From an uncultured delta proteobacterium (lineage in GTDB: Bacteria; Desulfobacterota; Binatia; UBA9968), in contig CAWDPO010000003.1 in NCBI GenBank assembly GCA_963804165.1, positions 96,001-160,000 on the forward strand: DNA of 64,000 nt. Direction: 5' to 3'. Both the position numbers and the translations under genes were made by a program. Of this stretch, positions 4,486 through 60,893 are shown piece after piece. Position 1 is the first letter of the stretch. Each line of letters starts with the position of its first letter. The notes beneath the pieces are model-generated. The model did not search any database and was not told where the DNA came from. It worked only from the letters and a program-made list of their open reading frames with translations.

Positions 4486-4528
4486 GTTCCAATCGTTCAA
4501 AAAGTTCAAATCGTTCCAGTCGTTCAGG
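4486..4528. repeat. Tandem 9-nt units (GTTCCAATC-like), single arm
   Basis: gttccaatc gttcaaaaa gttcaaatc gttccagtc gttcagg between convergent genes. Confidence 0.8.
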
Positions 4529-4549
4529 TCGGGGAGGCGAACGGTTCTG

Positions 4550-5371
4550 CTAGCCGAGAGTTTGCTTTAGCCAGTCCGTCACAATCTTCGAGACCTTCTC
4601 TTCCGCGCCGACGTAGAAGTGGTCGCAGTTGGACACAATCGCGACTTCGCACGGGCCGGAGCAGTTTTCTTTGAAGCGTTCGGCGGGATAATTTTCTACC
4701 GGTTCCTGGTCGCCGCGGATGAAGAGGACGGGGCATTTGATCCGCTTGGCGTTCTCTACCAAATCTGGCGCGTTGGTGAGGCGGTCGAGGTAGGTTCGTG
4801 CTGAGATCACCCATCACCAAGCCGGGATGAGCATGAGTTGCCGCGGTTTGGCGGCGGCCATTAATGCCTTGGCTTCTTTGATCTGCTCGTCGGTATTTCC
4901 CGCCAGAGAAAAGTTGCGCGCTGCCGTCGGATTGGTCATTCGGTTCCCGCCTGCATGGGCGGATAGCAAGATTAGCGCTTTGGTCTCCCGGATGGTTCGC
5001 CACATGCTCACTGGCGAGCACGCCGCCGTTGCTGTGACCGATGACGATGGGGTTGGTGAAGCCTTTGCTCGCCAAATACTTTGCCGCCAGTTTATTGTCT
5101 TCCACGCCTTCGGCGACCGTTTGATAAGCGCCGCCGACGCACTCGCGGCTATCATAGGTGCTCACCGAATCGTGGCCGCGCCGATTGAACGGCATGAATC
5201 ATAGCCAAGCGCGGTGATGTGCGGCGCGAGAAAGCGCGCGGCGCACACGTAAAAGTTCATCTGATTGCCGTGGCAATACATCGCTGCGCCCTTGCTCGAA
5301 CCGTCCGGTGTGTAGTAGGCAGCGTCTAAGGGATGGGTCGGCGTCGGTATGCTGATAAGTTCGGTTTTCAC
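4550..5371 (-). CDS. Alpha/beta hydrolase, frameshifted into about 4 pieces
   Basis: Consecutive fragments give CHGNQMNFY, the GHSNGG nucleophile elbow, LILLSAHAGG, PVLFIRGDQE and CDHFY. Confidence 0.75.
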
Positions 5372-43424: not shown

Positions 43425-46238
43425 CTACTTTGTGGATCTACCAGCCTTGAATGTCGGGTCGCTTTCGGCGCCCGGGCGTGGTTGCCATTGCAGCGAATAG
43501 TATTCGCCCCGGTCGCGCGCCCAGGGATCGAAAACGTTGACCACAGAATCAAGCTCGGCGCGCAGCTCCGGCATGGTTCGTAAGAGCACTCGCTTCAACG
43601 GCGACACTTCGATTTCGTGACCATTGGATTTCACTTTCTCCATGACCTTACCGTTGGGACCGTTGTCGTTGACCCACTTCACGCCAAAATCGGTATAAAA
43701 CGCCGGCCGAAAGCTCGAGGTTAGGAAACGGTCGCTAAACAGCCGTCGGGAAGCGTTGAGAATGAAAACCTGAAATTGCGTTTCCGAGATAGCAAAACCA
43801 TGGGGCCGCACGAACTCGGCGAGCCAACCGACGACCGCGTCCACATCTTCGATATTATCGACGATGCTGCCATCGGGCCGGCCCAGACAATCGTTGATCG
43901 CCTTGCCGTCGTCGTTTTTCTGCGACGTGGTAATTATCTTTGCGGCGTCGCACCGATGTTGCCCGTAGATCTCCCGCAGCAGCGCGACAACTCTCTGTTC
44001 CTCGACGCGCTCGGGTGAATTTAACGGCAGCCGCGAGTCGACGAAGTCGTCGAAACCGGTTAGTTGTTTGAGGCCGTATTGGCGGCGATATTCGTTGTAG
44101 CGCGGGATGCCGCGCTCCCGGTCACGAATGATATCCAAAGCCAAGACGTCGACTTTGCCCGTCGTGGTTTTTAGGCGCGGTAAACTTAGATTCTGCAAAA
44201 ACAGCGGATGGTTTTGCAACGACAGCTTACCGGCGCGCTGGCGTCCCATGGACAGCGCCCAATTGGCGATCCCGTGGCGGCGCATCGCCTGGGTCGCCTT
44301 GCCGAATACGGTGTTGACGACCGGAACTTTCCCCCTGATTGAGTTCGGATCGCCGTCCAGCTCGCGCAACTCGATCAAATCCGGAACCATCGGATGCAGC
44401 CGATAGGCGTTGACAAATTCCTCGGGGAAACTAAATGGCACACCGAAATGATTGACGCCGCCAGCGATGTCAGGCCTATCGCTGCCGAGAGCGAAAATCC
44501 CCGGGCCGGCGGCAAACGCCGAATACCAGTCGGTCGATCGTTTGCCGTGTGCCGATGCGGCAAATCGTTGAATCACTTTTGCCAGGGCGGCGCTGACGAG
44601 CGGATGATTTTGCAAAAGGCCGGACCAGTTGGCGTTCATCGCTAGATAAAGCGGCTCGTTGTACAGCAGCTGCGTTGTCCACTCGATCGTGTGAATCTTG
44701 GCGATCTCGGCGGAGACCACAAGGCGCGCGATTCCAAACAATTCATCAGAGCGGATGTCTTTGTATTTGATCGCCCGGTCGGGTGCATCGGGGTTTCGTA
44801 AACCGGAGTCCGATTCCGGATCGAAAGCGGCTTTGCGGCGAAATGCGTCGACAAAGAGATTATGCTCGCGGGCAAAGACATTATGAAAAAAACTCAAGCC
44901 GATGTTCCAATTATCCGGAAACGCCACGGTTTCTTGACCGGCCCATTGGGGGTTATGCGGATCAGACTTTCGCAAAACCGGCAGGTAGCCAGGTTGTTTC
45001 GGCGTGTCGGCGCCATTCGCTTCGAGCAGAAGCTTTGCCGGGTCGCGAGGATCGCGTTTGACGCGGCGGCGCGAAGTCTCGTCATACCCGTATACCTGCG
45101 AGGCGTCCCACCAGGCGGTAACTTTATTCAGCGTCGTTTTGGGAGCGCGGGATAAGTGCCGCTTACTACCGATTGTGAATGTCGGGGCGGGCGCATCCCC
45201 GCCGGTAAGACTTCGATCAATTCGATCCTCCGGCCGGCAGCCGACCTGTTTAGTGTCGTTTGCGCTCGACGCTCTTGTGCCGCCGTCGAGAAGTTGCGCG
45301 CCGCATCCCGTTGCGATCATCACTGCGTCGTTCTGTCCTTCCTGGAGATGGGAAAACCAGTCATGAGTCATGAATTGAATCCAAAAGGCGGCCAAGACGT
45401 TTAAATGCGTCGCCTTCTGGTAGTCGCAGTTGGTTTGTTGGGTTGAACCGTCCGTTACGCCTATACCGTCATTGCAGTTCGCTGAGGGCGACTGTGCGCG
45501 CGTGAAGAGTTTTCGACTGATCACCTGGGGATCAGGCCGCAACAAGCCGAGACGATCGCCGTGGCGGTTTTTTACGATTTCGTCCTCGCCCAGCTCCGGG
45601 AAAGTCGCTTCGAATTCGGTGTTGCGGCTGAAGGGTTGATCCACCGAGCCCATGAGAGGATTGACGATATCGTTACAGATGCCGGTCAGCGTGCGGAAAC
45701 GGATGAATTCGCCGGCGCACTTTTGCGCGCCTTCGCCGCCGACGGCGGCGAAATCTGGATGGTCCTTCGGGAGTCGCAGTTGCGGCCAGCTCTTTTGAAG
45801 ATCGCCTGCGGCGGTCTCTTGGCTCCGGACATAGTTCTCGTAGGTACCGCTGTTGTCGAAAAGATTGAACTTGAGCAGCTCGATGCGCTGGTATTCGATA
45901 TCGAGCAGCGCGCCGTTGATGCCGCGCCGGTTGGGGCTAAGAAAGCCGAACTTAGCAGTTAAGCCAACAGCCCGGCTGGGATCGGCGCCTGCCGCCCAAT
46001 ATCGCGGCCAGTCGAGCCACGGCGTTTCGCGCCAAGAAACCGCGGCTTCACCGCCGCGACAGCGGGCTGTGTCTTCGGAAACCTTTCCTAGAAATCGACC
46101 CGAATGATCCGCGGCGACAACGCGGAAACCGCCGAACGCATAGGCGATGCAGCTGCCGATTCGCGAATGGCGGAGGATCGGATAGGCGCCTAGCAGAACC
46201 GTGATGCTCGCTAAAAGATAGAGTGCAATTTTCTTCAT
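43425..46238 (-). CDS. Heme peroxidase-cyclooxygenase superfamily protein, fatty-acid alpha-dioxygenase-like
   Basis: WIQFMTHDW (distal His), WWDASQVYG, REHN, AKIHTIEWT, EEFVNAYRLHP (catalytic Tyr and proximal His), DRERGIPRYNEYRR, SRRLFSDRF; N-terminal signal/anchor. Confidence 0.85.
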   Translation of the reverse strand: MKKIALYLLASITVLLGAYPILRHSRIGSCIAYAFGGFRVVAADHSGRFLGKVSEDTARCRGGEAAVSWRETPWLDWPRYWAAGADPSRAVGLTAKFGFLSPNRRGINGALLDIEYQRIELLKFNLFDNSGTYENYVRSQETAAGDLQKSWPQLRLPKDHPDFAAVGGEGAQKCAGEFIRFRTLTGICNDIVNPLMGSVDQPFSRNTEFEATFPELGEDEIVKNRHGDRLGLLRPDPQVISRKLFTRAQSPSANCNDGIGVTDGSTQQTNCDYQKATHLNVLAAFWIQFMTHDWFSHLQEGQNDAVMIATGCGAQLLDGGTRASSANDTKQVGCRPEDRIDRSLTGGDAPAPTFTIGSKRHLSRAPKTTLNKVTAWWDASQVYGYDETSRRRVKRDPRDPAKLLLEANGADTPKQPGYLPVLRKSDPHNPQWAGQETVAFPDNWNIGLSFFHNVFAREHNLFVDAFRRKAAFDPESDSGLRNPDAPDRAIKYKDIRSDELFGIARLVVSAEIAKIHTIEWTTQLLYNEPLYLAMNANWSGLLQNHPLVSAALAKVIQRFAASAHGKRSTDWYSAFAAGPGIFALGSDRPDIAGGVNHFGVPFSFPEEFVNAYRLHPMVPDLIELRELDGDPNSIRGKVPVVNTVFGKATQAMRRHGIANWALSMGRQRAGKLSLQNHPLFLQNLSLPRLKTTTGKVDVLALDIIRDRERGIPRYNEYRRQYGLKQLTGFDDFVDSRLPLNSPERVEEQRVVALLREIYGQHRCDAAKIITTSQKNDDGKAINDCLGRPDGSIVDNIEDVDAVVGWLAEFVRPHGFAISETQFQVFILNASRRLFSDRFLTSSFRPAFYTDFGVKWVNDNGPNGKVMEKVKSNGHEIEVSPLKRVLLRTMPELRAELDSVVNVFDPWARDRGEYYSLQWQPRPGAESDPTFKAGRSTK

Positions 46239-46489
46239 GAATGTTCTACGAAGAGGCCCCATCCCGTCGAAGTACGGTCGTTACGCGACGACTTTCGTCT
46301 CGAATTGACGATGCAGTATGCGGGGAAAAGTAGCAATTAGTCAATTTGACTGTAGACAATGCGCACTCTGACTCAGCGATCTTGGAAAATCGCGCGATCT
46401 CGAATTGCCCTTCAGAGCCAAACTCTGTATAGCTCAACTGATCAATTCAGCGATCAGCTCTGTAACGACGAAATCATTACTCTTCACAG

Positions 46490-47469: not shown

Positions 47470-49809
47470 GTGATGTCTGACTATTCCGTCGTCGGGCAAT
47501 CGGTCTATCGAACCGACGCCAATCCGAAAGTCACGGGGCGGGCGCTCCATGTCGGCAACATCGAGATGCCGAGCATGCTGCATGTCGCGGTTTTACGCAG
47601 CCCGTATGCGCATGCGCGCATTACGCACATTGAGAAATCCAAGGCTGAAGCGCTGGACGGCGTCGCGGTTGTGCTGACCGGCGCGGAGATCGCGAAGATG
47701 CCGGGAATAGATCCACACTTCGGGCCGGCGTTTCGCGATCAGCCGATTCTCGCCGTGGAAAGAGCTTGCTATATCGGCGACCCGGTGGTGGCCGTCGCGG
47801 CTATCGATCGGCGCACCGCCGAAGACGCACTTCAGCTTATCGAAATCGATTACGAGCCGTTGCCGGGCGTGCATGACGTACTGGAAGCAGCAAATCCGGG
47901 ATCGCCGCTTGTGCATGAACAGCACCGGCCGGCTAAGGCGTTCGCCGATCTCGCGCATGTCAAAGCCGGTCAGCAATCGAACATATGCTATCACTTCAAA
48001 CTCCGCACCGGCGACGTCGACAAGGCCTTTGGCGAAGCGGACCGGATTTTCGAGGATACCTTCAGCTCGCCACCGGCGCAGCACATGCCGATGGAGCCGC
48101 ACGTAACATTAGCTTACGTCGACGAGCATGAGCGCTTGAACATCTGGACGGCGAGCCAATCGCCGTCTTACGTTCGCACGGAAATTTCCACCACCTTCGG
48201 TATTCCCATGAATCGCATTCGTGTACGCGTACCGTACATCGGCGGCGGTTACGGCGCCAAGCTCTACGCCAAGCTCGAACCGCTGGTGACGGTACTGGCG
48301 CTGATCACAAAAAAGCCGGTGCGTTACGCGCTCACGCGCGAAGAAGAATTTCTGACGATCACCAAGCATAAAGTCGTTACGAAAATCAAAACCGCGATCA
48401 AAGACGGCGCGATCACGGCGCGCAAGTGCGAAGTCTACTGGGACACCGGAGCCTACGCCGAAATCGGTCCGCGCATCGGACACAAATCCGGCTACACGTC
48501 AGCCGGGCCCTATCGGATTCCCAATGTGTGGATCGATTCCTATTGCGTGTACACAAACAAAGTCCCGGCGGGCGCCTTCCGCGGTTTCGGCGTGCCGCAA
48601 GTTATTTGGGCTTATGATTCGCAAACCGATTTAATCGCCCGCGCGCTCGGCGTGGACCCGGTGGAGTTTCGTCTTAAGCCGGCGCTGGACGAGGGCGAAC
48701 GCTTCGCTACCGGTACGGTCGTGCGATCTTTCGGAATCAAAGAGGCGATCCGACAGGCCGCGCGGGCGATCGAGTGGAACAAGGCGATGCCGGTGCAAAC
48801 TGGAACAAAGCGTCGCGGCAAAGGCATCGGCGCAGGCGTAAAAGCGGTACTCACGCCGTCTATTTCCGGCGCTATTGTGATACTCAATGCCGACGGCTCG
48901 GCGAACGTGTTGAGCAGCACCGTCGAAATGGGGCAGGGATCGGAGACGACGATGGGACAGATCGTCGCCGAGGAATTGGGCATCGCGCCCGATCGCGTGC
49001 ACATCGTTCAGCCCGACACCGATGTCACGCCTTATGACACGATAACTGCGGGAAGCCGTTCGACCTACCATATGGGAAACGCGGTGCGCATGGCCGCGGG
49101 GAAGATCAAAACGGAGCTATGCGAAGTCGTGGCATCGAAACTCGAAGTCGATCCCGATGATTTGCTACTGCGCAACAGCCGGGTGGTCGTGCGCGGCAAT
49201 GAAGAGCGCGGCATGGCGATCGGCGAAATATTTCTCGCCAAGTTCGGCAGTCTCGGAACAACCCTTGCCGCGGAAGCCGTTTGCCAACCGACGGCGGCGC
49301 ACATGGACCCGGAAACCGGTCAGTCGGAAAAATGCACGGAGTATTGGTTTCCTTCTGCCACCAGCGCGGAAGTCGAGGTCGACACCGAAACAGGGCGGGT
49401 AAAAGTTCTCCAGCTCTTCAGCGTCGGCGACACCGGCACGGCGATCAATCCGCGCCACTGCGAACAGCAACTGCAGGGCGCTGCGATTATGCATCTCGGT
49501 CTCACGATGTTCGAGGAAATGATCTTCGACGAGGGTCAGCTCACCAACGGATCGCTGCTCGACTACCAGGTCGCGTCGATCAAAGACATGCCGGAGTCGA
49601 TACAGTCAATCGTCGTCGAAGTACCGCACGAAGACGGGCCGTTCGGCGCAAAAGGAGTGGGCGAGACGGGCGCCCTAACAGTCGCCCCGGCGATCGCCAA
49701 CGCGATTCACGAAGCCGTCGGCGTGCGCATCCGCGATCTGCCGATCACACCGGAAAAAGTGTTGCGGGCGTTGGTAGAGCGAGAAGAAAATGCGAATGTA
49801 GGCCGTTGA
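47470..49809 (+). CDS. Xanthine dehydrogenase family molybdopterin-binding subunit (orphan)
   Basis: KVTGRA, LRSPYAHA, PMEPH, IGGGYGAK, GAFRGFGVPQ, EMGQG, AGSRST, GAKGVGE. Confidence 0.92.
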   Translation: MMSDYSVVGQSVYRTDANPKVTGRALHVGNIEMPSMLHVAVLRSPYAHARITHIEKSKAEALDGVAVVLTGAEIAKMPGIDPHFGPAFRDQPILAVERACYIGDPVVAVAAIDRRTAEDALQLIEIDYEPLPGVHDVLEAANPGSPLVHEQHRPAKAFADLAHVKAGQQSNICYHFKLRTGDVDKAFGEADRIFEDTFSSPPAQHMPMEPHVTLAYVDEHERLNIWTASQSPSYVRTEISTTFGIPMNRIRVRVPYIGGGYGAKLYAKLEPLVTVLALITKKPVRYALTREEEFLTITKHKVVTKIKTAIKDGAITARKCEVYWDTGAYAEIGPRIGHKSGYTSAGPYRIPNVWIDSYCVYTNKVPAGAFRGFGVPQVIWAYDSQTDLIARALGVDPVEFRLKPALDEGERFATGTVVRSFGIKEAIRQAARAIEWNKAMPVQTGTKRRGKGIGAGVKAVLTPSISGAIVILNADGSANVLSSTVEMGQGSETTMGQIVAEELGIAPDRVHIVQPDTDVTPYDTITAGSRSTYHMGNAVRMAAGKIKTELCEVVASKLEVDPDDLLLRNSRVVVRGNEERGMAIGEIFLAKFGSLGTTLAAEAVCQPTAAHMDPETGQSEKCTEYWFPSATSAEVEVDTETGRVKVLQLFSVGDTGTAINPRHCEQQLQGAAIMHLGLTMFEEMIFDEGQLTNGSLLDYQVASIKDMPESIQSIVVEVPHEDGPFGAKGVGETGALTVAPAIANAIHEAVGVRIRDLPITPEKVLRALVEREENANVGR

Positions 49810-49851
49810 CGGCCATCCGCGGTTGTCTGGAAACCATGGATCAAGTTCTAC

Positions 49852-50361
49852 TTATGGCCCCTTTAAGGCGCGCTTTTTCATCTCGTCAATATTGATGTTC
49901 GGCATACCGGGCATTACGATATCACCCGGTTTCTGTCCCGCTTTGCACGGACCTAGCCATTTTGCTTCGATCACCGATGAGGACTCCTTCATCCCCGATA
50001 CCGGCGGCTCATAGGTGCTCTTTATGTCGCCCTTATACGCGGAGTCGAACCGGCCCGTGAAGACGGCGCGGGTCGTCGCCGTGCTGTTTTCCACTTTGCA
50101 CACTGATTCGGCGATGACTTTATCTCCTTCTTTGCGCATCTCATTTTTAGTGCACTGGGGTTTTTGATTGTCGCCGAGGTCTTTTTTCATGAGGTCGTCG
50201 GTCTTCTCGTCGATACACTGTTGCATCGCATGACTGCCTTTGGTTTGGCCGCTCGAAATCTTGATCTCCCACAGGCCGGACTTGCGCTTGGGCGGATCGA
50301 AGGATGCGGCGGCAGCAGCGTTGGCGGCAAAAAGGACGAGGAGCAGGGCAAAATATCTCAT
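49852..50361 (-). CDS. DUF3617 family secreted protein
   Basis: Signal peptide; PKRKSGLWEI; QQCID; AKWLGPCKAGQKPGDI. Confidence 0.8.
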   Translation of the reverse strand: MRYFALLLVLFAANAAAAASFDPPKRKSGLWEIKISSGQTKGSHAMQQCIDEKTDDLMKKDLGDNQKPQCTKNEMRKEGDKVIAESVCKVENSTATTRAVFTGRFDSAYKGDIKSTYEPPVSGMKESSSVIEAKWLGPCKAGQKPGDIVMPGMPNINIDEMKKRALKGP

Positions 50362-50405
50362 CTGGATCTCCTTTAGAGAATTTTTCAATCGGTTCCGGAC
50401 GCGAT

Positions 50406-51386
50406 TTAGATCGCCGCCGGCGAATCGAGTTCGAAGCCGAGGTCCGCAATCATTTGATGCGCATCGGAGGCTTCTTGTCCCGGCGTAGTTAAGTAGCCGT
50501 TCACGAAGATCGAATTTGCCGGGTAGAGGCTCATCGGTTGGAGCGAACGCAGATTCACTTCTCTGCCGCCGGCGACGCGGATCTCCTTATTCGGATTCAC
50601 GAAGCGAAAGAGACAGAGCGTTTTTAGACACCGTTGCGGCGTAAGTTCTCGCTTGCTTTCGAAAGGCGTCGTCGGAATTGAATTCAAAAAGTTCACCGGG
50701 ATCGAGTCGATGTCCATGGCGCGGAGCGTCAACGCGAGATCGATGATGTCCTCGTCGCTTTCGCCCATGCCGATGATGCCGCCGGAGCAGGTGCCGATGC
50801 CGGCGTGTTTGACGTTCTCGATGGTCGCGACGCGGTCGTCATAGGTGTGCGTCGTGACGATTTCCGGGTGGTGAGCGCGGCTGGTATTCAAATTATGATT
50901 CACTCGGCCGACTCCGGCAGCTTTAAGTTTCTCGGTCTTGTCTTGGTTCATGAGACCGAGCGAGCAGCAAACGTTCATGCCGGTTTCTTTGCGGATCTCG
51001 CGTACGGCGTCGGCGATTTCGTCGATCTCTTTGTTCGTCGGGCCGCGGCCGCTGTTGACGATGCAGTATCGCACTGCGCCTGCGGCCTTTGCCGCTTTCG
51101 CGCCCTCAATGAGTTTTTCCTTGGACATGAACGGATAGCGGTCAATCGGCGCTTCGGAAACGGAGGATTGGGAGCAATAGTGACAGTCTTCCGGACAGAG
51201 GCCGCTTTTGGCGTTCTGCAGGACGTGGATTTGCACGCGCTTACCGTAGTAGTGGCGGCGCACTTTGAATGCTGCGCTCACCAACTCCGGCAGCTCGTCG
51301 TCCGTCGCGTCCAATACTGCTCTTAATTCATCTCGTTCAGGAATAATGCCTTGAAGCGCTTTGTTGGCCAACTGGTAAAAATCCAT
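50406..51386 (-). CDS. bioB: Biotin synthase
   Basis: SGLCPEDCHYCSQS radical SAM motif, CCSLG, NHNLNTS, CSGGIIGMGE, SIPVNFL, IRVAGGRE, ANSIF..YLTT. Confidence 0.95.
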   Translation of the reverse strand: MDFYQLANKALQGIIPERDELRAVLDATDDELPELVSAAFKVRRHYYGKRVQIHVLQNAKSGLCPEDCHYCSQSSVSEAPIDRYPFMSKEKLIEGAKAAKAAGAVRYCIVNSGRGPTNKEIDEIADAVREIRKETGMNVCCSLGLMNQDKTEKLKAAGVGRVNHNLNTSRAHHPEIVTTHTYDDRVATIENVKHAGIGTCSGGIIGMGESDEDIIDLALTLRAMDIDSIPVNFLNSIPTTPFESKRELTPQRCLKTLCLFRFVNPNKEIRVAGGREVNLRSLQPMSLYPANSIFVNGYLTTPGQEASDAHQMIADLGFELDSPAAI

Positions 51387-51411
51387 TCCATCCTCCGAAG
51401 TCAGACCGGTT

Positions 51412-51879
51412 TTAGCATGCGCTGTCCGGCCTTGCAAATAACGCTTCGCGCGCGTGGAAATTTCCCCACGTGTACAAGAACGCGGCCAACACGAAATGGA
51501 AAAAGATTGGTATCGTGCCGCCGTACCAGCGCATCTCGGGGCGCAAGATCATAGTTATAACGTAGCGCAGCACCATGGTGGTGGCGTAAATCGCGCTGAA
51601 GCCGACGAGAAAACGCGCAAAGCGGAGTCGTTTCTGCGCAAAAAACCCTTTGCCCCGCCACACGTCGGAGACGACCTCAACCATAACGATTAACATGACC
51701 ACCTGAATCGCCAGCAGAATGGGATACGGAACCAGACCTGATGCCCACTGTTCAGCAGAAGGTAACCAGCGAACCGAAAAAAATACGACAAGACCTTGGC
51801 CCAGGACGCGAAAAAAGAATAACAGAGTGAGAAACGCGAGAACGGGCCCGTATGCGCTCGACTTCAATCTCGCTTTCAC
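51412..51879 (-). CDS. Hypothetical integral membrane protein (about 4 TM)
   Basis: Four hydrophobic segments; GTGA overlap with the GH3 stop codon. Confidence 0.75.
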   Translation of the reverse strand: MKARLKSSAYGPVLAFLTLLFFFRVLGQGLVVFFSVRWLPSAEQWASGLVPYPILLAIQVVMLIVMVEVVSDVWRGKGFFAQKRLRFARFLVGFSAIYATTMVLRYVITMILRPEMRWYGGTIPIFFHFVLAAFLYTWGNFHAREALFARPDSAC

Positions 51880-53549
51880 GAGAGCAATTTGCCGGCCGTC
51901 TTCACGACAAATTCGATTTCGCTCGTCTCCTCCGGAGTAGCGCTCAGAAGCCGGGCTTTGAATTGCGCGTCGCGTGTCCCGGAGCGGAGAGCGTCATTGG
52001 CGCTGCGCTGGAACCAGCCCGGTTTCATCACGCACAACAGCGGCGCGCCGAGCCGCCGAGACTCACGTTTCTGCGCATACTCGATATTGAGCTCGCACAG
52101 GGACGCGTCCAGTTCCCCCAGCAATTGAACGAGCCGCTCTTGAGTTGCCATGACACCGTCCAATTCCACGAAGAACACATAAAGAGATTTTTCTACATCG
52201 GCACAGGCGCGATAGTGTTGAACCGCCATTGCCGCGGCGTTTTGCGCCTGTGCCATCGCCTGGATCACCTGGTTGACGTGAAGTTTTTCGCCGGTGATGT
52301 TGGTGACGTCGCGACCTTTGCGGACAAATTCGATCAGCGGCGTCTGGTTGTAATAGCCGGCGACGCGAACGACGTCGTTAATGTCGTAGCGGTAAAGGCC
52401 GGCGGGCGTGGTGAGAACCAGATAGTAGTTCGATCCTGCTTCGAGCTCAGTGCAGGTAAGGATCGTGGGCACCGGGCTGTCAACGTCCGATTCGGGAATG
52501 AACTCATAGAAATTTTCATCGATCGCAAGAATCCCGGCCGAGCCTGAGTCGGAAATGGGCAGGGTCATCTGCGCTTCGCTCGCCATGTAACCGAGATCGC
52601 GTGCCGGTGTTGTCTGGCCAAACCAGCGGGCAAATTCCTTGAGACGGAGGCCAACGGTGCCACCTTTCCAACAACCGATGAGTTGCAATCGCGGCCAATA
52701 CTCTTTGGGGCGGAGGGTCCCGTCGTTCTTAATTAAAGATTCTAGTCTCCTAGCGCGCGCCGGGTTTTTCCCAAGTCGGCTTCCGAGCACCGCTCGTACT
52801 TTGGGCGGCAGATTACAACGCTGGGCGATGGTGCCATCGCGAATGTCTTTGATGATTTCGTCCTTATGCCGGTCGGCGCTTTCAACGAGCTTCAGTATTG
52901 TGCTCGGGTTGGGTGTGCCCAAAAACGTGATGTTGTGTTCCAGCGCCAAGCGCATCGTAAGATAGTATTTCGATTCGAAGTCGTTGACTTCAGCAATTTC
53001 GTAGGGCACCGCGTAAGCATTTTTGATCCAGCTTGGACTGCTCTGATAGATCAATCCGGAAGCCGCGCCGAAAGCGACGTTGCCCGCGGTGTGGCCCTCG
53101 ATGGCGGGACTCACGACACCGAGCAGCTTGCCGCTAAACAGATCGGGATGGTCCACGAGAGCGCGGTAATACCAAAATCTGGTGAGTTGACGATGATTCC
53201 GGCGCGTGGTCTCTGTGACGGGGATCAGTTTGGGCTGACCGGTGCTGCCGCTGGTCATCGTGAACATCAATGCCGGCTCCGCGGTCAAGACGTTCGACTC
53301 GCCATTTTGCGCACGCTCGACGTAAGAGCGCAGGTGCTCGTAGTCGCCGATGTCAACCTGTTTGCGGTATTCGCTGAGAGAATGAATCGTGTCGAAATGA
53401 TGATCGCGACCGAAGCGCGCGCCGCGATTTCGACTTACAATATCGAGAAGCAAGCGATTCTGAATTCGTTCTGGATTCGTCGTGAGGCTCTCCCAGCGTG
53501 TCCACTGGCGGCGTGTAAGGAACGTAGCGGTTTTGAGAAGGATACCCAT
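51876..53549 (-). CDS. GH3 family acyl-acid amido synthetase
   Basis: Adenylation motifs TSGSTGQPKLIP, GYMASE, GLYRYDINDV; FYEFIP; TGEKL. Confidence 0.9.
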   Translation of the reverse strand: MGILLKTATFLTRRQWTRWESLTTNPERIQNRLLLDIVSRNRGARFGRDHHFDTIHSLSEYRKQVDIGDYEHLRSYVERAQNGESNVLTAEPALMFTMTSGSTGQPKLIPVTETTRRNHRQLTRFWYYRALVDHPDLFSGKLLGVVSPAIEGHTAGNVAFGAASGLIYQSSPSWIKNAYAVPYEIAEVNDFESKYYLTMRLALEHNITFLGTPNPSTILKLVESADRHKDEIIKDIRDGTIAQRCNLPPKVRAVLGSRLGKNPARARRLESLIKNDGTLRPKEYWPRLQLIGCWKGGTVGLRLKEFARWFGQTTPARDLGYMASEAQMTLPISDSGSAGILAIDENFYEFIPESDVDSPVPTILTCTELEAGSNYYLVLTTPAGLYRYDINDVVRVAGYYNQTPLIEFVRKGRDVTNITGEKLHVNQVIQAMAQAQNAAAMAVQHYRACADVEKSLYVFFVELDGVMATQERLVQLLGELDASLCELNIEYAQKRESRRLGAPLLCVMKPGWFQRSANDALRSGTRDAQFKARLLSATPEETSEIEFVVKTAGKLLS

Positions 53550-53555
53550 TTCACT

Positions 53556-55427
53556 CTATCGGCGCACTTCGTGCTTGGTGATTGCGAGGCGTTCCAAAAC
53601 GTCTTCACTGACCGTAACGCTGAGGCCGCGTGTTTTGAGGAGAGGCGCGCGCCCGGCGAAACCGAAAGCGACGTTTTCGAACGTGACATCCTCGGCGAGG
53701 AGCCAGGTGCCGAAGGAGCCTTCGGCGAATTCGAGCGCCGGCAAATGTGCCGCAAAGGTTCGGCCTGCGGCCGAAAGAATGCCGGTTTCGCCCACTTGCG
53801 CGCCGACTTGGATCTTGATGCCCGCGTCATGCGTGAGCTTGGCGATGGCCAAGCTGCCGGAGATGCCGGCGTTTTTCGACAAGCGAATGTTGAAGTAATC
53901 ACAGGCGCCACGCTCGATGAGGCGGCGCGCCTGTTCGAGCGTGACGAGGGATTCGTCGGCCATGACGGCGAGTCCACTTTCGGAACGCACGTGTTTCATT
54001 CCTTCGAGATCGTCGGCCGGCACCGGCTGCTCGATCACTGATAATTTAAATTGCCCGAGTCGCCTTAGTTGTTCCACGGCTTCATCGGCATTCCAAGCGC
54101 CGTTGGCATCCGCGCGCAATTCAACCTGGTCACCGACGGCTTTACGCACGGCCTCGAGGCGCGCCGCGTCGTTGGACGTGCCGACTTTCACCTTGATCTG
54201 ACGCAATCCCAAGCGCGCCATACGTTTGGCCAGAGCGGCGGCGTCTTTCGGTTCATCGGCGGAGATCACACCGCTATAGACGACTTCGAAACGCGCGGGG
54301 GCAAGCAGATCCGCCAGCGCGCAATGGCCGCCGCGCAGGCTCCAATCGAGAAGCGCCAATTCCACCGCGCAAAATGCCGCATTCCAAGCGGTGACAGCGG
54401 TTTCTCCGTAGCCGCTGCGCGTCCAGTCCGGCATCAGCGCTTGCAGGTGTTCAAGAGCTTCCCATCCAGGAATAAAGGTTTCACCAAAAATGTTTGGTGT
54501 CAGATGATCGCGAATGCGCGCAACCATGGTTTCCGTCGTTTCTCCACTGACATAGGAACGAGGCAAGCTCTCGCCGAAACCGCTGCGTCCGTCGTCGCCG
54601 GTGACTTTGATGATCACCGTGTCGCTCTCTTCGCGGCTCTGCAGCGCGTGGCGAAAAGTCTGTTTAAACGGGATACCTAACTGGTAGATGGTTACGGACT
54701 CGATGTGCCGCGCCTTTGCCGCAGTTGATTTCATTCGAGTACGTTGTTTCGAGCTGGGCGGAAAATAATGACGCACGAAGAGGTTGTCGTCGAGAGTTAA
54801 ACGCGCGATCCGGTCGAATAGTGTGTCTGAGATTTGGTGAAAGTCCGAATAGTCCTGGATCACCGTCACGCCTTCCTCGGCGTGGCGGACATCGACCTCG
54901 GAATGAAGCGCAAACCAGTGCAGTGCCGGTTTGGGGATTGCGTAGCGGTTCGTCAAGGCTTCGGCGATTTCGCTCGAACAGCGCGACAGCATGAACTCGA
55001 AGCTCATGGTTTCGAGCAGGACGGACAGGCAAAGCTCACGCAGGGTCGCCACCGGCACGCGGGTGGCGCAGAAGATCGCGACGCGTTTGCGCGCGTCGGC
55101 GACCAGATCGTCGATTTCACTGTCAGTAAAACCCACGCCGCGGGCCAATTCCAAAAGCAGCGCCGAGTGCGGCTTCTCGTGCTCCGAGCAGCCCATTTCT
55201 TCCATGAGGTTCTCTTTTAATGACTCTGCGCCGCTCGACGGCAGAGAAGCGAAACACAGCGCGACGATATGCGACGACAGAAAGTGGGTGCGAAAAACGT
55301 TGCGGAGAAACTCGAGCGCGGCGTCGCGCGTAGCATATCCCGATACTAGGTCGCGGTACTCGGGAGATTCCTTGAACTCGCGAGTAGCGCTTTCAAAGAA
55401 TTCGATTATCGTCTTCGCGGCGACCAT
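53556..55427 (-). CDS. Fusion: heme-oxygenase-like diiron (CADD/PqqC-like) domain plus enolase-superfamily (MLE subgroup) epimerase-like domain
   Basis: N-domain NLMEEMG..EKPH, ETMSFE, WFALHSEVDVRH; C-domain GFGESLPR, VELALLD, IKVKVG, RADANG, IEQP, MADES, NIRLSK, GAQVGE. Start at ATG 55427 after GAGGTG. Confidence 0.85.
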   Translation of the reverse strand: MVAAKTIIEFFESATREFKESPEYRDLVSGYATRDAALEFLRNVFRTHFLSSHIVALCFASLPSSGAESLKENLMEEMGCSEHEKPHSALLLELARGVGFTDSEIDDLVADARKRVAIFCATRVPVATLRELCLSVLLETMSFEFMLSRCSSEIAEALTNRYAIPKPALHWFALHSEVDVRHAEEGVTVIQDYSDFHQISDTLFDRIARLTLDDNLFVRHYFPPSSKQRTRMKSTAAKARHIESVTIYQLGIPFKQTFRHALQSREESDTVIIKVTGDDGRSGFGESLPRSYVSGETTETMVARIRDHLTPNIFGETFIPGWEALEHLQALMPDWTRSGYGETAVTAWNAAFCAVELALLDWSLRGGHCALADLLAPARFEVVYSGVISADEPKDAAALAKRMARLGLRQIKVKVGTSNDAARLEAVRKAVGDQVELRADANGAWNADEAVEQLRRLGQFKLSVIEQPVPADDLEGMKHVRSESGLAVMADESLVTLEQARRLIERGACDYFNIRLSKNAGISGSLAIAKLTHDAGIKIQVGAQVGETGILSAAGRTFAAHLPALEFAEGSFGTWLLAEDVTFENVAFGFAGRAPLLKTRGLSVTVSEDVLERLAITKHEVRR

Positions 55428-55474
55428 GATCACCTCATTCAACAAACGGCGAAGCGGTGCGTTTAACCAGTCGG

Positions 55475-58400
55475 TCAGCTTCGCTCCAGAGCCAGCGCTT
55501 TTACTTTTTTGAGGTCCGCTTTGCCTGATCCGAGCACAGGAATGGCATCGATGGGATGGAGATTCTCGCGTTTCGGGACCCAGAGCTTGGGCAACTCGGA
55601 CTGATTGAGCTTGCTCCATAACTCGTCGCGCGTGACACCGTTGTGCGCGTAGAAGGCGACAAGCTTCTCGCCGCGTTGCTCGTCTGGAATCGCGGTGACG
55701 ACGGAGGCCACGTGACCCAGTACTTCGTTGATCACTTCCTCGACTTTCATATGTGGCACCATCTCGCCGCCGATTTTACTGAAGCGCGAGACCCGATCGG
55801 TGATGCGAATGAACCCGTCTTCGTCGATCGCCCCAACATCGCCGGTAACATACCAGCCGCGACGCATCGCTTGTTCGGTTAGATTAGGTTGGTTGAGATA
55901 ACCGAGCATGACGTTGGGACCTTTGATCAGCAATAACCCTTCTTCGCCGGGACCGAGAGGTTGCTCGGTATCCGGATCAATGATCTTCGCCGCGACGCCG
56001 GGGATCGGGTGGCCGACAGTGCCGGGTTTGTGGCTGATCTGGTTTTCCTTGCCATCGACGACGTCCGGGGTATTAACCGCGACCACCGGCGCCAGCTCCG
56101 TGCAGCCGTAACCTTCGAGGATCGTCAAGCCAAATTTCTCTTGAAAGCCTTTGGCAATCTGTTCGCGCAATTTTTCAGCGCCGGCGATGATGTAGCGCAG
56201 GCTGGCAAATTCCTCCTTGCTGCAGCGGCGCCAGTAGCTGACATAGAAAGTCGGCGTGCTGATCAAAAGCGTGGCTTGGTATTTTTGGACAGTCTCGCCG
56301 ATGGTTTTGGCGTCGGTGGGATTGGGATGGTAAACCGCGCCGAACCTTTCGAGCACCGGCAGCCACAGCGTTGCAGTGAAACCGAAGGAATGAAACAGCG
56401 GCAGCACTCCCATGATACGATCGGTCGGTGTAAACCGGATGACTTGGGCGATCCCTTCGACGTTCGACAAGATGTTATGATGCGACAGCATGACGCCCTT
56501 GGGTGTGCCGGTACTGCCGCTGGAAAAAATCACCGTCGCGAGATCATTGGGCCGCTGTTGCTTGAGATAGCGGCGGTTCAACCAGCCTGCCGGTGTAGGA
56601 AAAGTTCTGACCGCCGTCGCGGCCTTGCGCAAGCCGGTGAAGGTTTCCCGAATATCTTCGACGAAAACCATTCCTTCCATCTCGCCTATGTTCGCCTTCG
56701 ATAAAAATGCCTGGGACGTGACGATGGTTTCTATCCCGCACTGCGCGACCGCCGCGCTCATCGTCTCCGCCCCTGAAGTGAAATTTAGGTTTACGGGCAC
56801 TTTCCCAGCTAATAAGATTGAAATATTCACCAGCGATCCGCCCACCGACGGCGGTAGAATAACGCCTACCATCGTCTGATTGACGCAATGGTTTCTGACC
56901 CAGCGTGCGAACAGCAAAGCGCCGATCAATGTTTTTCCGTAGGTCAACTCCACGCCTGTAGTGTCGGCCATACAGAAGGAAAACCAATTGCGCTTTGCTA
57001 TTCTAATGAATTTGGCGTGAAGGAGATCGGCAGTGCTTTCGCGGCAGTCGAACGCGTTGCTCTCGAGTTCGAGGACGGCATTGCGAACTTGATGGACGCT
57101 GGCAGTGGACGGCAGCGGTGACCCAAAAGAGACCGTGACGGGATAGGAGAACTTTTTCGGCCACTTCCAGAAAAAACGCCCATCCGCAAAGCTGAAGATA
57201 CTGCCCCAGAGTTGGTCGATGTGAACCGGTATGATCGGTATATTTGTGCCTTCGACGATCTTCTCGAAGCCGCGTTTGAATGGCAGCAAATGGCCCACGC
57301 GGCTAATCGCGCCTTCCGCGAAGATGCAGACCATGTGGCCGTTGTCCAATTCGTTGCGTGCGCGTTTGAGCGACTGGACGATATCGCGCCGGTTGGTCGC
57401 CGATACCGGTATGGAGCGCATCAGTCGGAAAAACCAATTGAGCCACTTGAGGTCGTAATAGTCGCGGTGCAGCATAAAGCGCACGAAGCGGGGCGTGCCG
57501 CCGCCGATCATGAGCGCGTCGACGAAAGAAACGTGATTCGAAACGAGTAATGCCGGACCGTGCGCTGGCAGGTTTTCGGCGCCAACGATTTTGATCCGAT
57601 AGATCGTGTGAGTGAAGAGCCACAGAATGAAGCGGACGAAATAATCGGGCAGGAAATAAAGAATCACTCCCGTGCCGGCCAAGGTGACAAGTCCGGTTAG
57701 AAGAATGATCGAATCGGGAGAAAATGCGAGCGGCGCTTTGAGAATCCAGTGAATGCCAGCGGCAAGAAAAATTCCGATGGTATTCATAAAATTGTTGGTT
57801 GCGATCAGTTGGCCCTTCTCCTCTTTACCGCTGCGCTGCTGCAGTAACGCGTTCAGCGGCACGGCGAACAGTCCGGCGGAGAATCCGAGCAGCGTCAGCG
57901 AAGCGCATGTGTAAGGATAGGACGGAGCGGAAAGTGCCACCAAACCGAGGCAAACACCCATTGCTACCGACCCCAGTGGCACCAAGCCCAGCTCGATATG
58001 ATCGCCCGAGAGCCGGCCCGCAGCGAGGCTCCCCGCGCCGATGCCGATCGCCAAAAACGTTCCAAGCAGGCCGATGTGGAACTCATCCAATTGCAAAAGC
58101 TCTTTGCCAAAAAATAGGAGATTGATCTGAACGAGGGCGCCGAGAAACCAAAAGTAGGAAATCCCGATCACCGTTAGCCAGAGCACTCTCTCGGCGCGCA
58201 AGCGGCCGAGGCCTTCGAAGACTTCGCGCAGCGGATTGAGCCGCAGAAGTTTTGCGGCGCCTGAGGCGGGAACCCGAGTGATGCCGAGACTCGTAAACAT
58301 GCCCAGGCCGGCAATGGCGATCATTAAAATGCCGATCAGAGGCAGCTTGTCTTTCCACACGGCAAAGATCGCGCCTCCTACGGAAGTGCCGAGAATGATC

Positions 58401-58867
58401 GCCATAAAAGTGCTCATCTCGAGCAGGCCATTGCCCCGCGACAGCTCTCTTTCGGGAAGCATCTCCGGCAAAATGCCGTATTTGGCCGGGCTGAAGAAAG
58501 CGGCGTGGAGTCCCATGAGAAAGACTATGGCGAGCATGGACTGAATATGACCGGTGAAGAATGCCGCGAGCGCCAACAGCATGATCCCGATTTCGCATAC
58601 CTTAACCGCGACTAAGATGGTTCTCTTACTGTAGACATCGGCCAGATAACCCGCATAGCCTGAAAACAGCGCTCCCGGCAGTATGAACAGAAAAGCGATC
58701 AGCTCGACGTAACTATCGGCGCCTTGCGTTGCCAAATCCAAGGCGATGAACGACACCACAATCTTCAAAAAGTTGTCGTTAAACGCGCCGAGAAATTGCG
58801 TGCAGAAAAAAGCAAAAAAGCCCGGCTGCCTGAGCGTGTCGGTGTATTTGCCGTCGGTCATTGCCAT
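55475..58867 (-). CDS. aas: Aas-type trifunctional protein: LplT-like MFS plus acyltransferase plus acyl-ACP synthetase
   Basis: TQFLGAFNDN and FFSPAKYGILPE (LplT), NHVSFVD and FAEG (PlsC-type), IFSSGSTGTPKG, EGYGCTE, WYVTGD, GSGKAD. Confidence 0.9.
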   Translation of the reverse strand: MAMTDGKYTDTLRQPGFFAFFCTQFLGAFNDNFLKIVVSFIALDLATQGADSYVELIAFLFILPGALFSGYAGYLADVYSKRTILVAVKVCEIGIMLLALAAFFTGHIQSMLAIVFLMGLHAAFFSPAKYGILPEMLPERELSRGNGLLEMSTFMAIILGTSVGGAIFAVWKDKLPLIGILMIAIAGLGMFTSLGITRVPASGAAKLLRLNPLREVFEGLGRLRAERVLWLTVIGISYFWFLGALVQINLLFFGKELLQLDEFHIGLLGTFLAIGIGAGSLAAGRLSGDHIELGLVPLGSVAMGVCLGLVALSAPSYPYTCASLTLLGFSAGLFAVPLNALLQQRSGKEEKGQLIATNNFMNTIGIFLAAGIHWILKAPLAFSPDSIILLTGLVTLAGTGVILYFLPDYFVRFILWLFTHTIYRIKIVGAENLPAHGPALLVSNHVSFVDALMIGGGTPRFVRFMLHRDYYDLKWLNWFFRLMRSIPVSATNRRDIVQSLKRARNELDNGHMVCIFAEGAISRVGHLLPFKRGFEKIVEGTNIPIIPVHIDQLWGSIFSFADGRFFWKWPKKFSYPVTVSFGSPLPSTASVHQVRNAVLELESNAFDCRESTADLLHAKFIRIAKRNWFSFCMADTTGVELTYGKTLIGALLFARWVRNHCVNQTMVGVILPPSVGGSLVNISILLAGKVPVNLNFTSGAETMSAAVAQCGIETIVTSQAFLSKANIGEMEGMVFVEDIRETFTGLRKAATAVRTFPTPAGWLNRRYLKQQRPNDLATVIFSSGSTGTPKGVMLSHHNILSNVEGIAQVIRFTPTDRIMGVLPLFHSFGFTATLWLPVLERFGAVYHPNPTDAKTIGETVQKYQATLLISTPTFYVSYWRRCSKEEFASLRYIIAGAEKLREQIAKGFQEKFGLTILEGYGCTELAPVVAVNTPDVVDGKENQISHKPGTVGHPIPGVAAKIIDPDTEQPLGPGEEGLLLIKGPNVMLGYLNQPNLTEQAMRRGWYVTGDVGAIDEDGFIRITDRVSRFSKIGGEMVPHMKVEEVINEVLGHVASVVTAIPDEQRGEKLVAFYAHNGVTRDELWSKLNQSELPKLWVPKRENLHPIDAIPVLGSGKADLKKVKALALERS

Positions 58868-59058
58868 CTCAGATTACTAGCGTCTATTTTTTTCGGCAAG
58901 TTCAAAACCCAAAACAAAATTGCGGTCCGTCACCGTGAAGCGGCCGCGATCGCGAAGACAGAAAACTCAAGGAAGATTTCAAATGAATACCCTAAACGCA
59001 ACAATCACGGAACCGCATAAACTATTGCACACATTCAAGCAACCGACCATAATCGGGC

Positions 59059-59832
59059 ATGGAAATCAGCCGGTTTAGTGTTCCCCAGTGGGAGAATCAT
59101 GTCGGCTTGCTGCACGGCTTCATGGGCCGGCGCGGTGGCAAGAGCATCGGGCCGTATGCCGCGCTGAATGTCTCTTACCGCGTCGGCGACGATCCGAAAG
59201 TTGTCAGTCAGAACATCTGCGATATGAAGCTCGCCGTCGGCATTCACGACGGGCGAATCGTCACCTTGCGGCAAGTGCACGGTGATCACGTCGTCGAAGT
59301 CCAAGACAAAACTCTCAAAGAGGCGGGCGAAGCGGATGGAATGATCACGAGGGAACCGGATGTTTATCTCGGGGTGTTAACCGCCGACTGCGTGCCGATT
59401 CTCTTCGTCGCGCCCAAGCAGAAGTTGGTTGCTGCCGTCCACGCCGGCTGGCGCGGCACGTTGGCCGGGATCGCGGAAAAGACTGCACGCTTATTCAGGA
59501 GCCGATACGATGTTCAACCAAGTGATTTGGAGGTCGCGCTGGGTCCTTCCATCGGGCCGTGTTGTTATGAAGTGAAGGACGATGTCGTCGTTCCGCTAAT
59601 GAAAAAATGGGGGAAGTTGACGACTCCCAGCGTCTTGGTCAAGCAAGGCAAGTCGTTTGTCAATTTGCGCCGGCTCAACCGAGATATTCTCCGCGCCGCC
59701 GGAGTGCCCGGAAAGCAACTCTTTCAAGTCGGACCCTGCACCAGTTGCGTCACGGAAGAGTTTTTCTCCTACCGGCGCGAGCGCAGTGAAACCGGCCGGC
59801 AAATGAGCGTGATTGGCTGGTCGCCCGCCTAG
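59059..59832 (+). CDS. pgeF: Peptidoglycan editing factor PgeF (YfiH/LACC1 family)
   Basis: QVHG, ADG, LTADCVPIL, HAGWRG, GPSIGPCCYEV, CTSC, FFSYRR. Confidence 0.92.
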   Translation: MEISRFSVPQWENHVGLLHGFMGRRGGKSIGPYAALNVSYRVGDDPKVVSQNICDMKLAVGIHDGRIVTLRQVHGDHVVEVQDKTLKEAGEADGMITREPDVYLGVLTADCVPILFVAPKQKLVAAVHAGWRGTLAGIAEKTARLFRSRYDVQPSDLEVALGPSIGPCCYEVKDDVVVPLMKKWGKLTTPSVLVKQGKSFVNLRRLNRDILRAAGVPGKQLFQVGPCTSCVTEEFFSYRRERSETGRQMSVIGWSPA

Positions 59833-59930
59833 TGCCCCAGCCATCGGCAAATTTCTGTTGACGTCTTGCGGCTAAGTAGCTAGTTTTACCAGGCTCTCGT
59901 GGCGATTTTCTTATTCTGGCGGAGGAATCT

Positions 59931-60893
59931 ATGGGGATTACGCGACGACAATTTCTAGCCACGCTAACGGTAGGTGTGACGAGTTTGGGGGTGACGCGCG
60001 ATTTCAGTTGGGCGCAGGCGAAGGGCAAGCTCGGCTACATGAAGATCGTCGATAACGCGGCGATGTTCGTGGCGATGGAAAAAGGTTTCTTCAAAGCCGA
60101 AGGGCTCGAGTTGGAGACCGTGCCGATGGCGGGCGGAGCGGTGATCGTGCAAGGGGTGACCTCGGGCGACCTGCAGTTCGGCTGGACCAACGTCATTTCT
60201 TTGTATCAGGCTTACGTCGAAGGGTTCGACTTCAAACTGATCGCCGGCGGCGCGACCAACGTCAGAGGCAGCAACGAAACGCACGCGATCGTCGTCGGGA
60301 AAGATTCCTCTATCAAGAGCGCCAAAGATCTCGAAGGGAAAACCGTTGCGGTTAACACGTTGAACAACATCGTCCATTTGATGGCGATGGCGTGGGTCGA
60401 CAAGAACGGCGGCATCTCAAGTAAAATAAAGTTCGTGGAGATTCCATTTCCGCAAATGGAGCCCGCGCTCGTGGCGGGTAAAGTAGACGCCATCAGCGTG
60501 CAGGAGCCCTTTGCCGCGGTGGCCGCGCGAAAGCCAGAGACTCGGGTGTTATCGAATCCCTGGGGCGATGTCGCGCCGAAATTCTTGATCGCCAGCTGGT
60601 TCGCCTCGGAAAAGTGGATTCAAAAAAATAAGAGTACAGCCCAGGCATTCGTGCGCGCGATCAATCGCGGCATCGACGCGATTCATGCGGATAAGGATGG
60701 CGCCCGTGCCGCGATGATCAAGTGGGCGGGGCTCAATCCAGAAATGGTCGGCAAGATCGGTTTGCCGCTTTTTGAAAAGGCCGTCAATGAGAAAGACGTT
60801 CAAGCGACCATCGATTTGACGGTAAAATACAAATTTATAACCCGAGCCCTCAAAGCGAGAGAAGTGATCAGCGACATCACGCCGAAGGCATGA
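59931..60893 (+). CDS. ABC transporter substrate-binding protein (SsuA/TauA/NMT1-like), Tat signal
   Basis: TRRQFL Tat motif; GFFKAEGLELE; DLEGKTVAVN; GKVDA. Confidence 0.9.
   Translation: MGITRRQFLATLTVGVTSLGVTRDFSWAQAKGKLGYMKIVDNAAMFVAMEKGFFKAEGLELETVPMAGGAVIVQGVTSGDLQFGWTNVISLYQAYVEGFDFKLIAGGATNVRGSNETHAIVVGKDSSIKSAKDLEGKTVAVNTLNNIVHLMAMAWVDKNGGISSKIKFVEIPFPQMEPALVAGKVDAISVQEPFAAVAARKPETRVLSNPWGDVAPKFLIASWFASEKWIQKNKSTAQAFVRAINRGIDAIHADKDGARAAMIKWAGLNPEMVGKIGLPLFEKAVNEKDVQATIDLTVKYKFITRALKAREVISDITPKA

Follow-up and report, generated by a model that had tools for sequence, protein, structure and literature searches.

Among the closest described systems is that of OlsH from Singulisphaera acidiphila, which PMC12493201 presents as a GH3 enzyme that forms an amide from a free fatty acid, an amino acid and ATP, using neither coenzyme A (CoA) nor acyl carrier protein (ACP). 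OlsH (2025) is the one characterised bacterial GH3 found in the literature examined. The relevant passages of a 2026 review on amino lipids list orders with OlsH homologues and name neither Binatia, nor a racemase, nor a heme-oxygenase-like diiron oxidase (HDO); the same review states that it is still unclear how many bacterial N-acyl amino acids are made (PMC12971839). A second precedent is the mangotoxin cluster mboABCDEF in which, according to PMC13185094, a heme-oxygenase-like oxidase is combined with ATP-dependent amide ligases on amino-acid-derived substrates, outside the logic of nonribosomal peptide synthetases (NRPSs). Here we describe a cassette that brings together an HDO domain fused to an enolase-superfamily domain of the MLE subgroup (HDO::MLE), a GH3 acyl-acid amido synthetase and a small membrane protein. 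It lies in a stretch of 64,000 nucleotides (hereafter the window; positions 96,001 to 160,000 of contig CAWDPO010000003.1, assembly GCA_963804165.1) from an uncultured delta proteobacterium of the Binatia. By analogy with characterised enzymes, we give an even chance to its product being an oxidised, possibly epimerised N-acyl amino acid lipid. The window belongs to contig C3 of the assembly, which comprises 7.5 Mb and is 81% complete. Coordinates follow window numbering, gene starts were taken from the sequence, and protein identities were judged by Pfam and NCBIfam cut-offs.

The cassette resembles the OlsH/OlsI system in having a GH3-family amide ligase and in lying in a small, here putative, operon without NRPS or polyketide synthase (PKS) genes. 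It differs in that its GH3 is not an OlsH equivalog, that the OlsI alpha/beta-hydrolase is not among the six co-oriented genes of the region, and that the partners of the ligase here, namely the HDO oxygenase, the enolase domain and the four-helix membrane protein, do not occur in the Ols pathway. The ligases of the mangotoxin cluster are ATP-grasp enzymes rather than GH3 proteins, and that cluster, as described in PMC13185094, lacks an enolase-superfamily partner, a fusion and a membrane protein. GH3-dependent amide-lipid synthesis and clusters of a ligase with an HDO are known kinds; what appears to be new is a GH3 with HDO and enolase partners. The literature searched contained no description of the HDO-MLE-GH3 combination or of an HDO-enolase fusion, and among the titles listed none concerned a bacterial HDO-GH3 pairing. 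An earlier reading made from the DNA alone (the sequence-only reading) had noted that no NRPS or PKS gene is present among the six, which we confirm, and cluster finders centred on NRPS and PKS genes would probably miss the cassette.

The conservation of the cassette was followed in 104 loci with an HDO match, of which 21 came from species genomes, 80 from metagenomes and 3 from a sample of the class; the window proteins were mapped onto them by tblastn. Each count given below uses only the loci long enough to show the gene concerned, the loci are kin and not independent, with a few duplicates, and those with an HDO identity below 46% are called distant. The MLE gene directly follows HDO in 77 of 78 loci, the single miss being an internal deletion (L070), and in all 28 distant loci. 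GH3 comes next after MLE in 56 of 59 loci (misses L070, L089 and L100), including 22 of 24 distant ones, at HDO identities down to 34%. A single protein comprises HDO and MLE in the Binatia-like loci and also in L075 and L077 (38–41% identity), where the fusion was counted as independent of the Binatia-like one. Elsewhere they are separate genes with a stop/start overlap of 4 bp, and genome G026 has a split form with another gene order (membrane protein, HDO, MLE, GH3). Given these fixed neighbour counts and the order across loci, HDO(::)MLE-GH3 is what selection maintains, usually accompanied by the membrane protein.

The sequence-only reading had proposed a single biosynthetic operon of six genes, from aas to a DUF3617 gene, and expected GH3, HDO/epimerase and aas homologs to occur together in other genomes. 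This expectation is borne out for GH3 and the HDO::epimerase-type protein, whose association is near-invariant and in fixed order. It is not supported to the same degree for aas, which is not a constant neighbour and lies within 5 kb upstream of HDO in 33 of 52 loci and in 2 of 14 distant ones. Of 151 genomes sampled within the class, 3 had the full fusion, which was not found in two genomes of the same genus that are 96–98% complete and both carry bioB. Genome G056 (L109, G056:C127, 454-1249) has only the membrane gene left before bioB, preceded by a 99-residue FAD-binding fragment, while in L070 (6053-6921) the membrane gene comes almost immediately after HDO residues 1-143. These decay forms indicate that the cassette is dispensable and decays. 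HDO::MLE, GH3 and the membrane protein are a rare, movable gene set.

GH3 enzymes form amides, not thioesters. The GH3 protein of the window, encoded by the second core gene (51876-53549, minus strand; 557 residues), matches the three GH3 Pfam domains with 233.1 (N), 81.1 (M) and 60.9 (C) bits against cut-offs of 23.6 each, and its best solved relatives are JAR1 and GH3.15 (E 5e-32). The stretches T99-S100-G101..K107..P110, S324-E325 and Y386-R387-Y388..D392, which we take, in line with section 9 of PMC12493201, to be the three GH3 nucleotide motifs, are invariant in 19 sequences and conserved in 28. Few genomes of the class carry GH3 genes (6 of 151), and in four of the six an HDO/MLE pair adjoins.

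Other GH3 sequences were seen in passing. The window's own genome has a second GH3 N-terminal fragment (73 bits) at a contig end (G000:C28:30640-30852), and thus probably holds a second GH3 gene cut by the assembly. Rieske/VanA-type oxygenases accompany further GH3 paralogs of the class (L114, G105:C39, 5904-13627; L115, G121:C29, 6289-10571). In G121 and G145, GH3 is preceded by a protein of 245–249 residues without a Pfam family, 40% identical between the two genomes. An apparent 846-residue GH3 fusion in L114 was discarded, its N-terminal 290 residues having the look of an over-extended reading frame.

The first core gene encodes the HDO::MLE fusion of 623 residues (53556-55427, minus strand). 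Its start was placed at the ATG at 55427, which follows GAGGTG; the longer open reading frame from 55619 would overlap aas. The HDO domain (residues ~1-235, 54723-55427, minus strand) matches Pfam Haem_oxygenas_2 with 58 bits. Its AF2 model (predicted local distance difference test, pLDDT, 94.7) has the HDO helical fold, and Foldseek returned matches with a probability of 1.00 to CADD, HrmI, PqqC, FlcD, RohS and UndA. CADD, the 4-aminobenzoate synthase of Chlamydia trachomatis (1rcw, 8va9), is the best fold match (TM 0.67–0.74; TMq 0.61–0.68, TMt 0.66–0.74; 18% identity); the two proteins share the seven-helix HDO fold, and the motifs E..H, E and HxExDxxH align with those of CADD. The putative metal ligands, assigned from the residues that presumably bind metal in CADD, are E76/E77, H87, E144, H175, E177, D179 and H182, all invariant in 9 sequences. 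The domain differs from CADD in scoring 25.9 bits against a cut-off of 200 for the CADD family (TIGR04305) and in being paired with MLE and GH3 genes; we know of no such pairing for CADD. The family is also tiny, as a search of 1.84 billion proteins with residues 1-235 gave just 100 representatives at E <= 0.001.

Most relatives of the HDO domain are stand-alone proteins of 225–240 residues; in the one search whose stand-alone relatives were compared by label, Pyrinomonadaceae was the sole non-Binatia label. The fused relatives include P0122 and P0131, the latter at 40% identity; those with names come mostly from metagenome-assembled genomes labelled Candidatus Binatia or 'delta proteobacterium', and a few are labelled Limnocylindria, Polarisedimenticolaceae or Verrucomicrobiia. 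P0188 is an HDO fused to an enoyl-CoA hydratase domain (ECH::HDO). One further protein of the representative library, P0196 (510 residues), has an HDO match spanning residues 26-201, with GH3 domains starting at residue 166, and is either a natural HDO-GH3 fusion without the MLE part or a gene-calling artefact.

The MLE-subgroup domain of the fusion (residues ~241-623, 53556-54707, minus strand) matches MR_MLE_C with 167 bits and MR_MLE_N with 27 bits. Its best PDB matches by sequence are dipeptide epimerases, with 3jva and 1tkk at the head, and 2p88 (E 1e-41 to 4e-39); over 3jva, 1tkk, 3q45 and 2p88 together the values span 1e-41 to 7e-34. It aligns over the full length (E 4e-39) with 2p88, which we take to be an N-succinyl-Arg/Lys racemase. 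In common with these racemases and epimerases it has a TIM-barrel, KxK at beta2, the D/E/D metal ligands and a second lysine base at beta6. These residues align with 1tkk and 3jva and are invariant in 28 family members (<= 60% identity). The domain departs from them in being fused or translationally coupled to an HDO and in the end of beta8, where DxD is replaced by EGSxG (EGSFG in the query, DFD in 3q45), a motif conserved across the MLE family studied here. The DxD at beta8 binds the free N-terminal ammonium of a dipeptide substrate. With EGSxG in place of DFD, a substrate whose N-terminus is free becomes less likely, and an N-blocked amino acid would fit. The domain scores under every NCBIfam equivalog cut-off: the top score is that of muconate cycloisomerase (TIGR02534; 142 bits, cut-off 334.95), epimerase models give 116 against 500 bits and 85 against 343 bits, and the menC and DgcA models all fall under their cut-offs. 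We infer a racemase activity from the sequence features of the domain.

The third core gene (51412-51879, minus strand), frequent though not universal, encodes a membrane protein of 155 residues. The protein has no match in Pfam or NCBIfam, an Atlas search returned only clusters named 'hypothetical protein', and the AF2 model, with four long helices (pLDDT 80.3), had no Foldseek match in the PDB at E <= 0.001. Its invariant polar residues include Q59, R105, R117 and H128. A homolog is present at the expected distance downstream of GH3, on either strand, in 35 of 54 loci and in 7 of 20 distant loci.

Variants of the locus bear on the nature of the acyl group. Besides the upstream position, aas occurs close to the cassette in three further arrangements (L025 and L107; L038; L005). 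A TPR gene stands between an upstream aas and the cassette in G026 and L107, aas lies downstream in L038, and in L005 aas and bioB are directly adjacent with the cassette 4.3 kb away. In the same-genus genome G011 (L108, G011:C238, 1607-3280) the slot between aas and bioB is occupied by a 557-residue protein in which a FeeM-type N-acyl amino acid synthase (PF21926, 41 bits, cut-off 27) is fused to a class V aminotransferase domain. This fusion occurs also at L067 (6310-7950), side by side with the cassette after aas, and at L070 (4107-5714); it is full-length in 3 of 41 family genomes (G011, G173 and G158), and the same query gave no match in the window's own genome. FeeM-type synthases have an unrelated GNAT fold and use acyl-ACP rather than ATP and a free acid. 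They nevertheless make N-acyl amino acids, as the cassette would according to our proposal. G105 carries the cassette on a different contig; directly after its aas ortholog come a Rieske/VanA-type oxygenase and a further GH3. A 907-residue FA_hydroxylase (PF04116)::GH3 fusion is encoded in G148 (L113, G148:C39, 5015-7738), followed by homologs of MLE (32%, 3826-5004) and of the membrane protein (33%, 3322-3735); judged by sequence, the module is the same except that a membrane-bound diiron oxygenase of lipid type stands in for HDO. Lipid genes also neighbour the distant loci, namely PlsY (L088, L104), Lgt (L092) and an MMPL exporter (L068). Each of these observations is circumstantial. Taken together, the recurrence of aas, the contents of the slot, the G148 variant and the PlsY, Lgt and MMPL neighbours point to a fatty-acyl substrate. 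As a separate observation, an S-adenosylmethionine-dependent methyltransferase of the leucine-carboxyl-methyltransferase family (TIGR00027) directly follows GH3 in the distant loci L068 (11560-12591), L069 (4615-5559) and L084 (11543-12454), with the MMPL transporter after it in L068; this enzyme may methylate the carboxylate of the product.

In the route that we propose, GH3 would adenylate a carboxylic acid, for which a free fatty acid is the most likely candidate, and join it to the alpha-amino group of an amino acid. By analogy with OlsH, the product would be an N-acyl-L-amino acid with a free alpha-carboxylate. Enolase-superfamily chemistry requires a proton alpha to a carboxylate, and the GH3 product would suit the MLE domain because an N-acyl amino acid offers such a proton. 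The MLE domain, which keeps the lysine bases and Mg ligands and has no DxD clamp, would take this proton and epimerise the head group to the D form, or might instead catalyse an elimination. With O2, the fused CADD-like diiron (or Fe/Mn) oxygenase would hydroxylate, desaturate or oxidatively decarboxylate the same conjugate at the membrane; the fusion of MLE and HDO implies consecutive steps on one molecule. The small membrane protein may hold, flip or export the lipid, and Aas may feed the product, or O-acylate it further through its PlsC-type acyltransferase domain. Experiments on OlsH show that a bacterial GH3 can N-acylate an amino acid with a fatty acid (PMC12493201), in support of the amide-forming step in the sequence-only reading. 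In living E. coli OlsH had no activity, for which a shortage of free fatty acid is the probable cause (PMC12493201, section 9).

Several points weigh against this route. The chemistry assigned to every cassette member rests on analogy. In the case of GH3, the OlsH equivalog model NF052613 gives 130.8 bits against a cut-off of 620, with a partial match over residues 280-518 (the GH3 homolog of L084 gives 88.1 bits with the same model), and plant GH3s act on aromatic and other non-fatty acids. No OlsI-type alpha/beta-hydrolase domain occurs in any of the six window genes. The enolase domain, given its top score with muconate cycloisomerase, may be no racemase, and the metal motifs of HDO are degenerate in 6 of 27 more distant relatives (alignment A1). 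In 19 of the 54 loci, no homolog of the membrane protein turned up downstream of GH3. The flanks of the distant loci are heterogeneous (hut-like genes, LCM methyltransferase, FMO, S15 peptidase), so that no fourth enzyme fixes the product, and the neighbour evidence as a whole is drawn from related, non-independent genomes.

A more specific form of the lipid proposal, which we put forward tentatively, is that the product of the cassette represents a membrane lipoamino acid of a new class, with a D head group, oxidised by the first known bifunctional HDO-enolase, whose active sites would alternate near the alpha-carbon. Possible outcomes would then be oxidative decarboxylation to an enamide, or a hydroxylation after which Aas could attach another acyl chain through its PlsC-type domain. 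The cassette would in that case be one module within a wider, unrecognised set of 'GH3 + iron oxygenase' genes (HDO, FA-hydroxylase, Rieske) that moves in and out beside aas.

A water-soluble product is rather doubtful in our judgement, although it survives best among the alternatives. GH3 would couple an amino acid to an acid that is short, aromatic or derived from an amino acid, and HDO and the enolase would tailor the resulting pseudo-dipeptide to a signal, a siderophore-like compound or an antimetabolite, as in the case of mangotoxin. The closest solved relatives of GH3 do use jasmonate, auxins and benzoates, the nearest folds to HDO are CADD and the N-oxygenases HrmI and RohS, and the best PDB matches of the enolase domain are dipeptide epimerases; against this reading, the DxD clamp for a free N-terminus is missing. 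A class IV aminotransferase, also in keeping with a soluble product, lies downstream of the cassette in L007, L008, L009, L012, L053 and L065. It scores under all NCBIfam cut-offs, and its occurrence is limited to one sub-clade and L005. A soluble product fits poorly with the membrane protein that accompanies the cassette in those 35 of 54 loci, with the existence of the FA_hydroxylase::GH3 variant and the ECH::HDO fusion, with the recurrence of aas, PlsY, Lgt and MMPL among the neighbours, and with the FeeM-type synthase in the same slot of the sister genome.

A role in salvage or catabolism, modelled on the N-succinyl-amino-acid racemase pathways, is improbable. A D- or damaged amino acid would first be N-acylated by GH3 and then inverted by the enolase, and the L form would be freed by a hydrolase encoded elsewhere. 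The full-length similarity of the MLE domain to 2p88 agrees with such a role, as do some neighbours: L012 has hydantoinase-like and D-glutamate-cyclase-like genes upstream and the class IV aminotransferase downstream, L091 has HutF and an ArgE-type deacylase downstream, and L097 has Amidohydro_1 and M20 there, identified by Pfam matches only. The Amidohydro_1 and M20 genes of L091 had been considered as N-acyl-amino-acid hydrolases and were dropped as such on account of their HutF and ArgE-type scores. No hydrolase is constant among the neighbours, an ATP-spending ligase would be an unusual choice for salvage, and neither an O2-dependent oxygenase fused to the racemase nor the membrane protein has a role in it.

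The lipid proposal concerns the three core genes, and the remaining genes of the row call for separate treatment. All six open reading frames are co-oriented on the minus strand with gaps of 47, 6, -4, 25 and 44 bp, the membrane-protein gene overlapping the GH3 stop by 4 bp; the layout and spacing given by the sequence-only reading were reproduced, and each domain that it named was recovered by Pfam or NCBIfam. The first gene, aas (55475-58867, minus strand; 1130 residues), a recurrent neighbour of the cassette, encodes an LplT-Aas fusion (PRK08633, 1391 bits, cut-off 1221), which joins a lysophospholipid transporter to a PlsC-type acyltransferase and an acyl-ACP synthetase, with MFS_1, Acyltransferase and AMP-binding domains, and is the only full-length LplT-Aas of the genome. 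Downstream of the cassette, bioB (50406-51386, minus strand; 326 residues) encodes biotin synthase (TIGR00433, 401.2 bits, cut-off 225), the sole BioB over the cut-off in the genome, whose bioF-bioA-bioD genes form their own operon on another contig (C8). The last gene (49852-50361, minus strand) encodes a DUF3617 protein of 169 residues with a signal-peptide-like N-terminus (53.3 bits, cut-off 24.5).

The region holds 14 terminator-like sites, compared with 12.4 +/- 3.3 in shuffled sequences, and none of them falls within the gaps between the six genes; a scan of the region for promoters and terminators gave a result no different from chance, and an Rfam scan of 49000-60000 found no family. 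With no terminator-like site inside any gap, co-transcription of the six genes is plausible, being compatible with the spacing alone. No RNA run is listed for this sequence, and two soil DNA runs contain small shares of it. In this genome aas is probably co-transcribed with the cassette; the latter is flanked by the housekeeping genes aas and bioB, and transcription from the aas promoter probably extends into it. At 43425-46262 (minus strand), the window also encodes a protein of 945 residues that contains an animal haem peroxidase domain (PF03098, 231 bits) and whose gene is syntenic in L017 and L019.

That all six genes, including aas, bioB and DUF3617, serve one route is very unlikely. The co-orientation, the short gaps free of terminator-like sites, the repeated position of aas beside amide-lipid genes and the gene order shared by L001, L002, L010, L011 and others speak for it. 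In those same loci, however, the outer genes (CuOx4, NMT1, ABC, MoCoBD, EamA) are equally kept on both sides, and the conservation of the six therefore amounts to no more than synteny between related genomes. L007, L008, L009 and L012 have the cassette but neither aas nor bioB, and in L005 it stands apart from the aas-bioB pair. bioB adjoins the cassette in 17 of 48 loci and in none of 18 distant loci, and is absent from the neighbourhood in 31 of the 48; the DUF3617 gene follows bioB in 10 of the 21 species-genome loci on which this count was made, and only in close relatives. bioB and aas are moreover the sole copies of the genome. We reject the six-gene operon as one pathway, and with it the boundary drawn by the sequence-only reading. 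BioB and DUF3617 are bystanders and would take no part in the cassette chemistry, while aas may have a supporting role, given its recurrence beside amide-lipid genes.

Least probable is a route to the biotin precursor pimelate, in which the diiron oxygenase would cleave a fatty acid and the GH3 activate the product: it would explain the adjacency of bioB, the ferritin-like diiron oxygenase BioE makes pimeloyl thioesters (PMC12704756) and no BioC over the cut-off was found in the 81%-complete genome, but the full fusion is confined to 3 of 151 class genomes and was not found in the two same-genus genomes with bioB, bioB is beside the cassette in 0 of 18 distant loci, bioF, bioA and bioD are elsewhere, and the GH3 family is amide-forming rather than thioester-forming. 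The biotin link is rejected on distribution, with the missing BioC leaving a small door open.

The cassette is thus a defined and strongly conserved three-gene target, in which a GH3 is combined with two enzyme types not reported together with it in the searched literature. The variable site beside aas, which holds a FeeM-type synthase, a Rieske oxygenase with GH3, or HDO::MLE with GH3, suggests a general place to seek lipid-tailoring genes. Solving the cassette would assign a function to a rare HDO subfamily, to a new branch of the enolase superfamily and to an unannotated membrane-protein family, and might lead to a novel membrane lipid or signal of Binatia and Acidobacteriota from soil.

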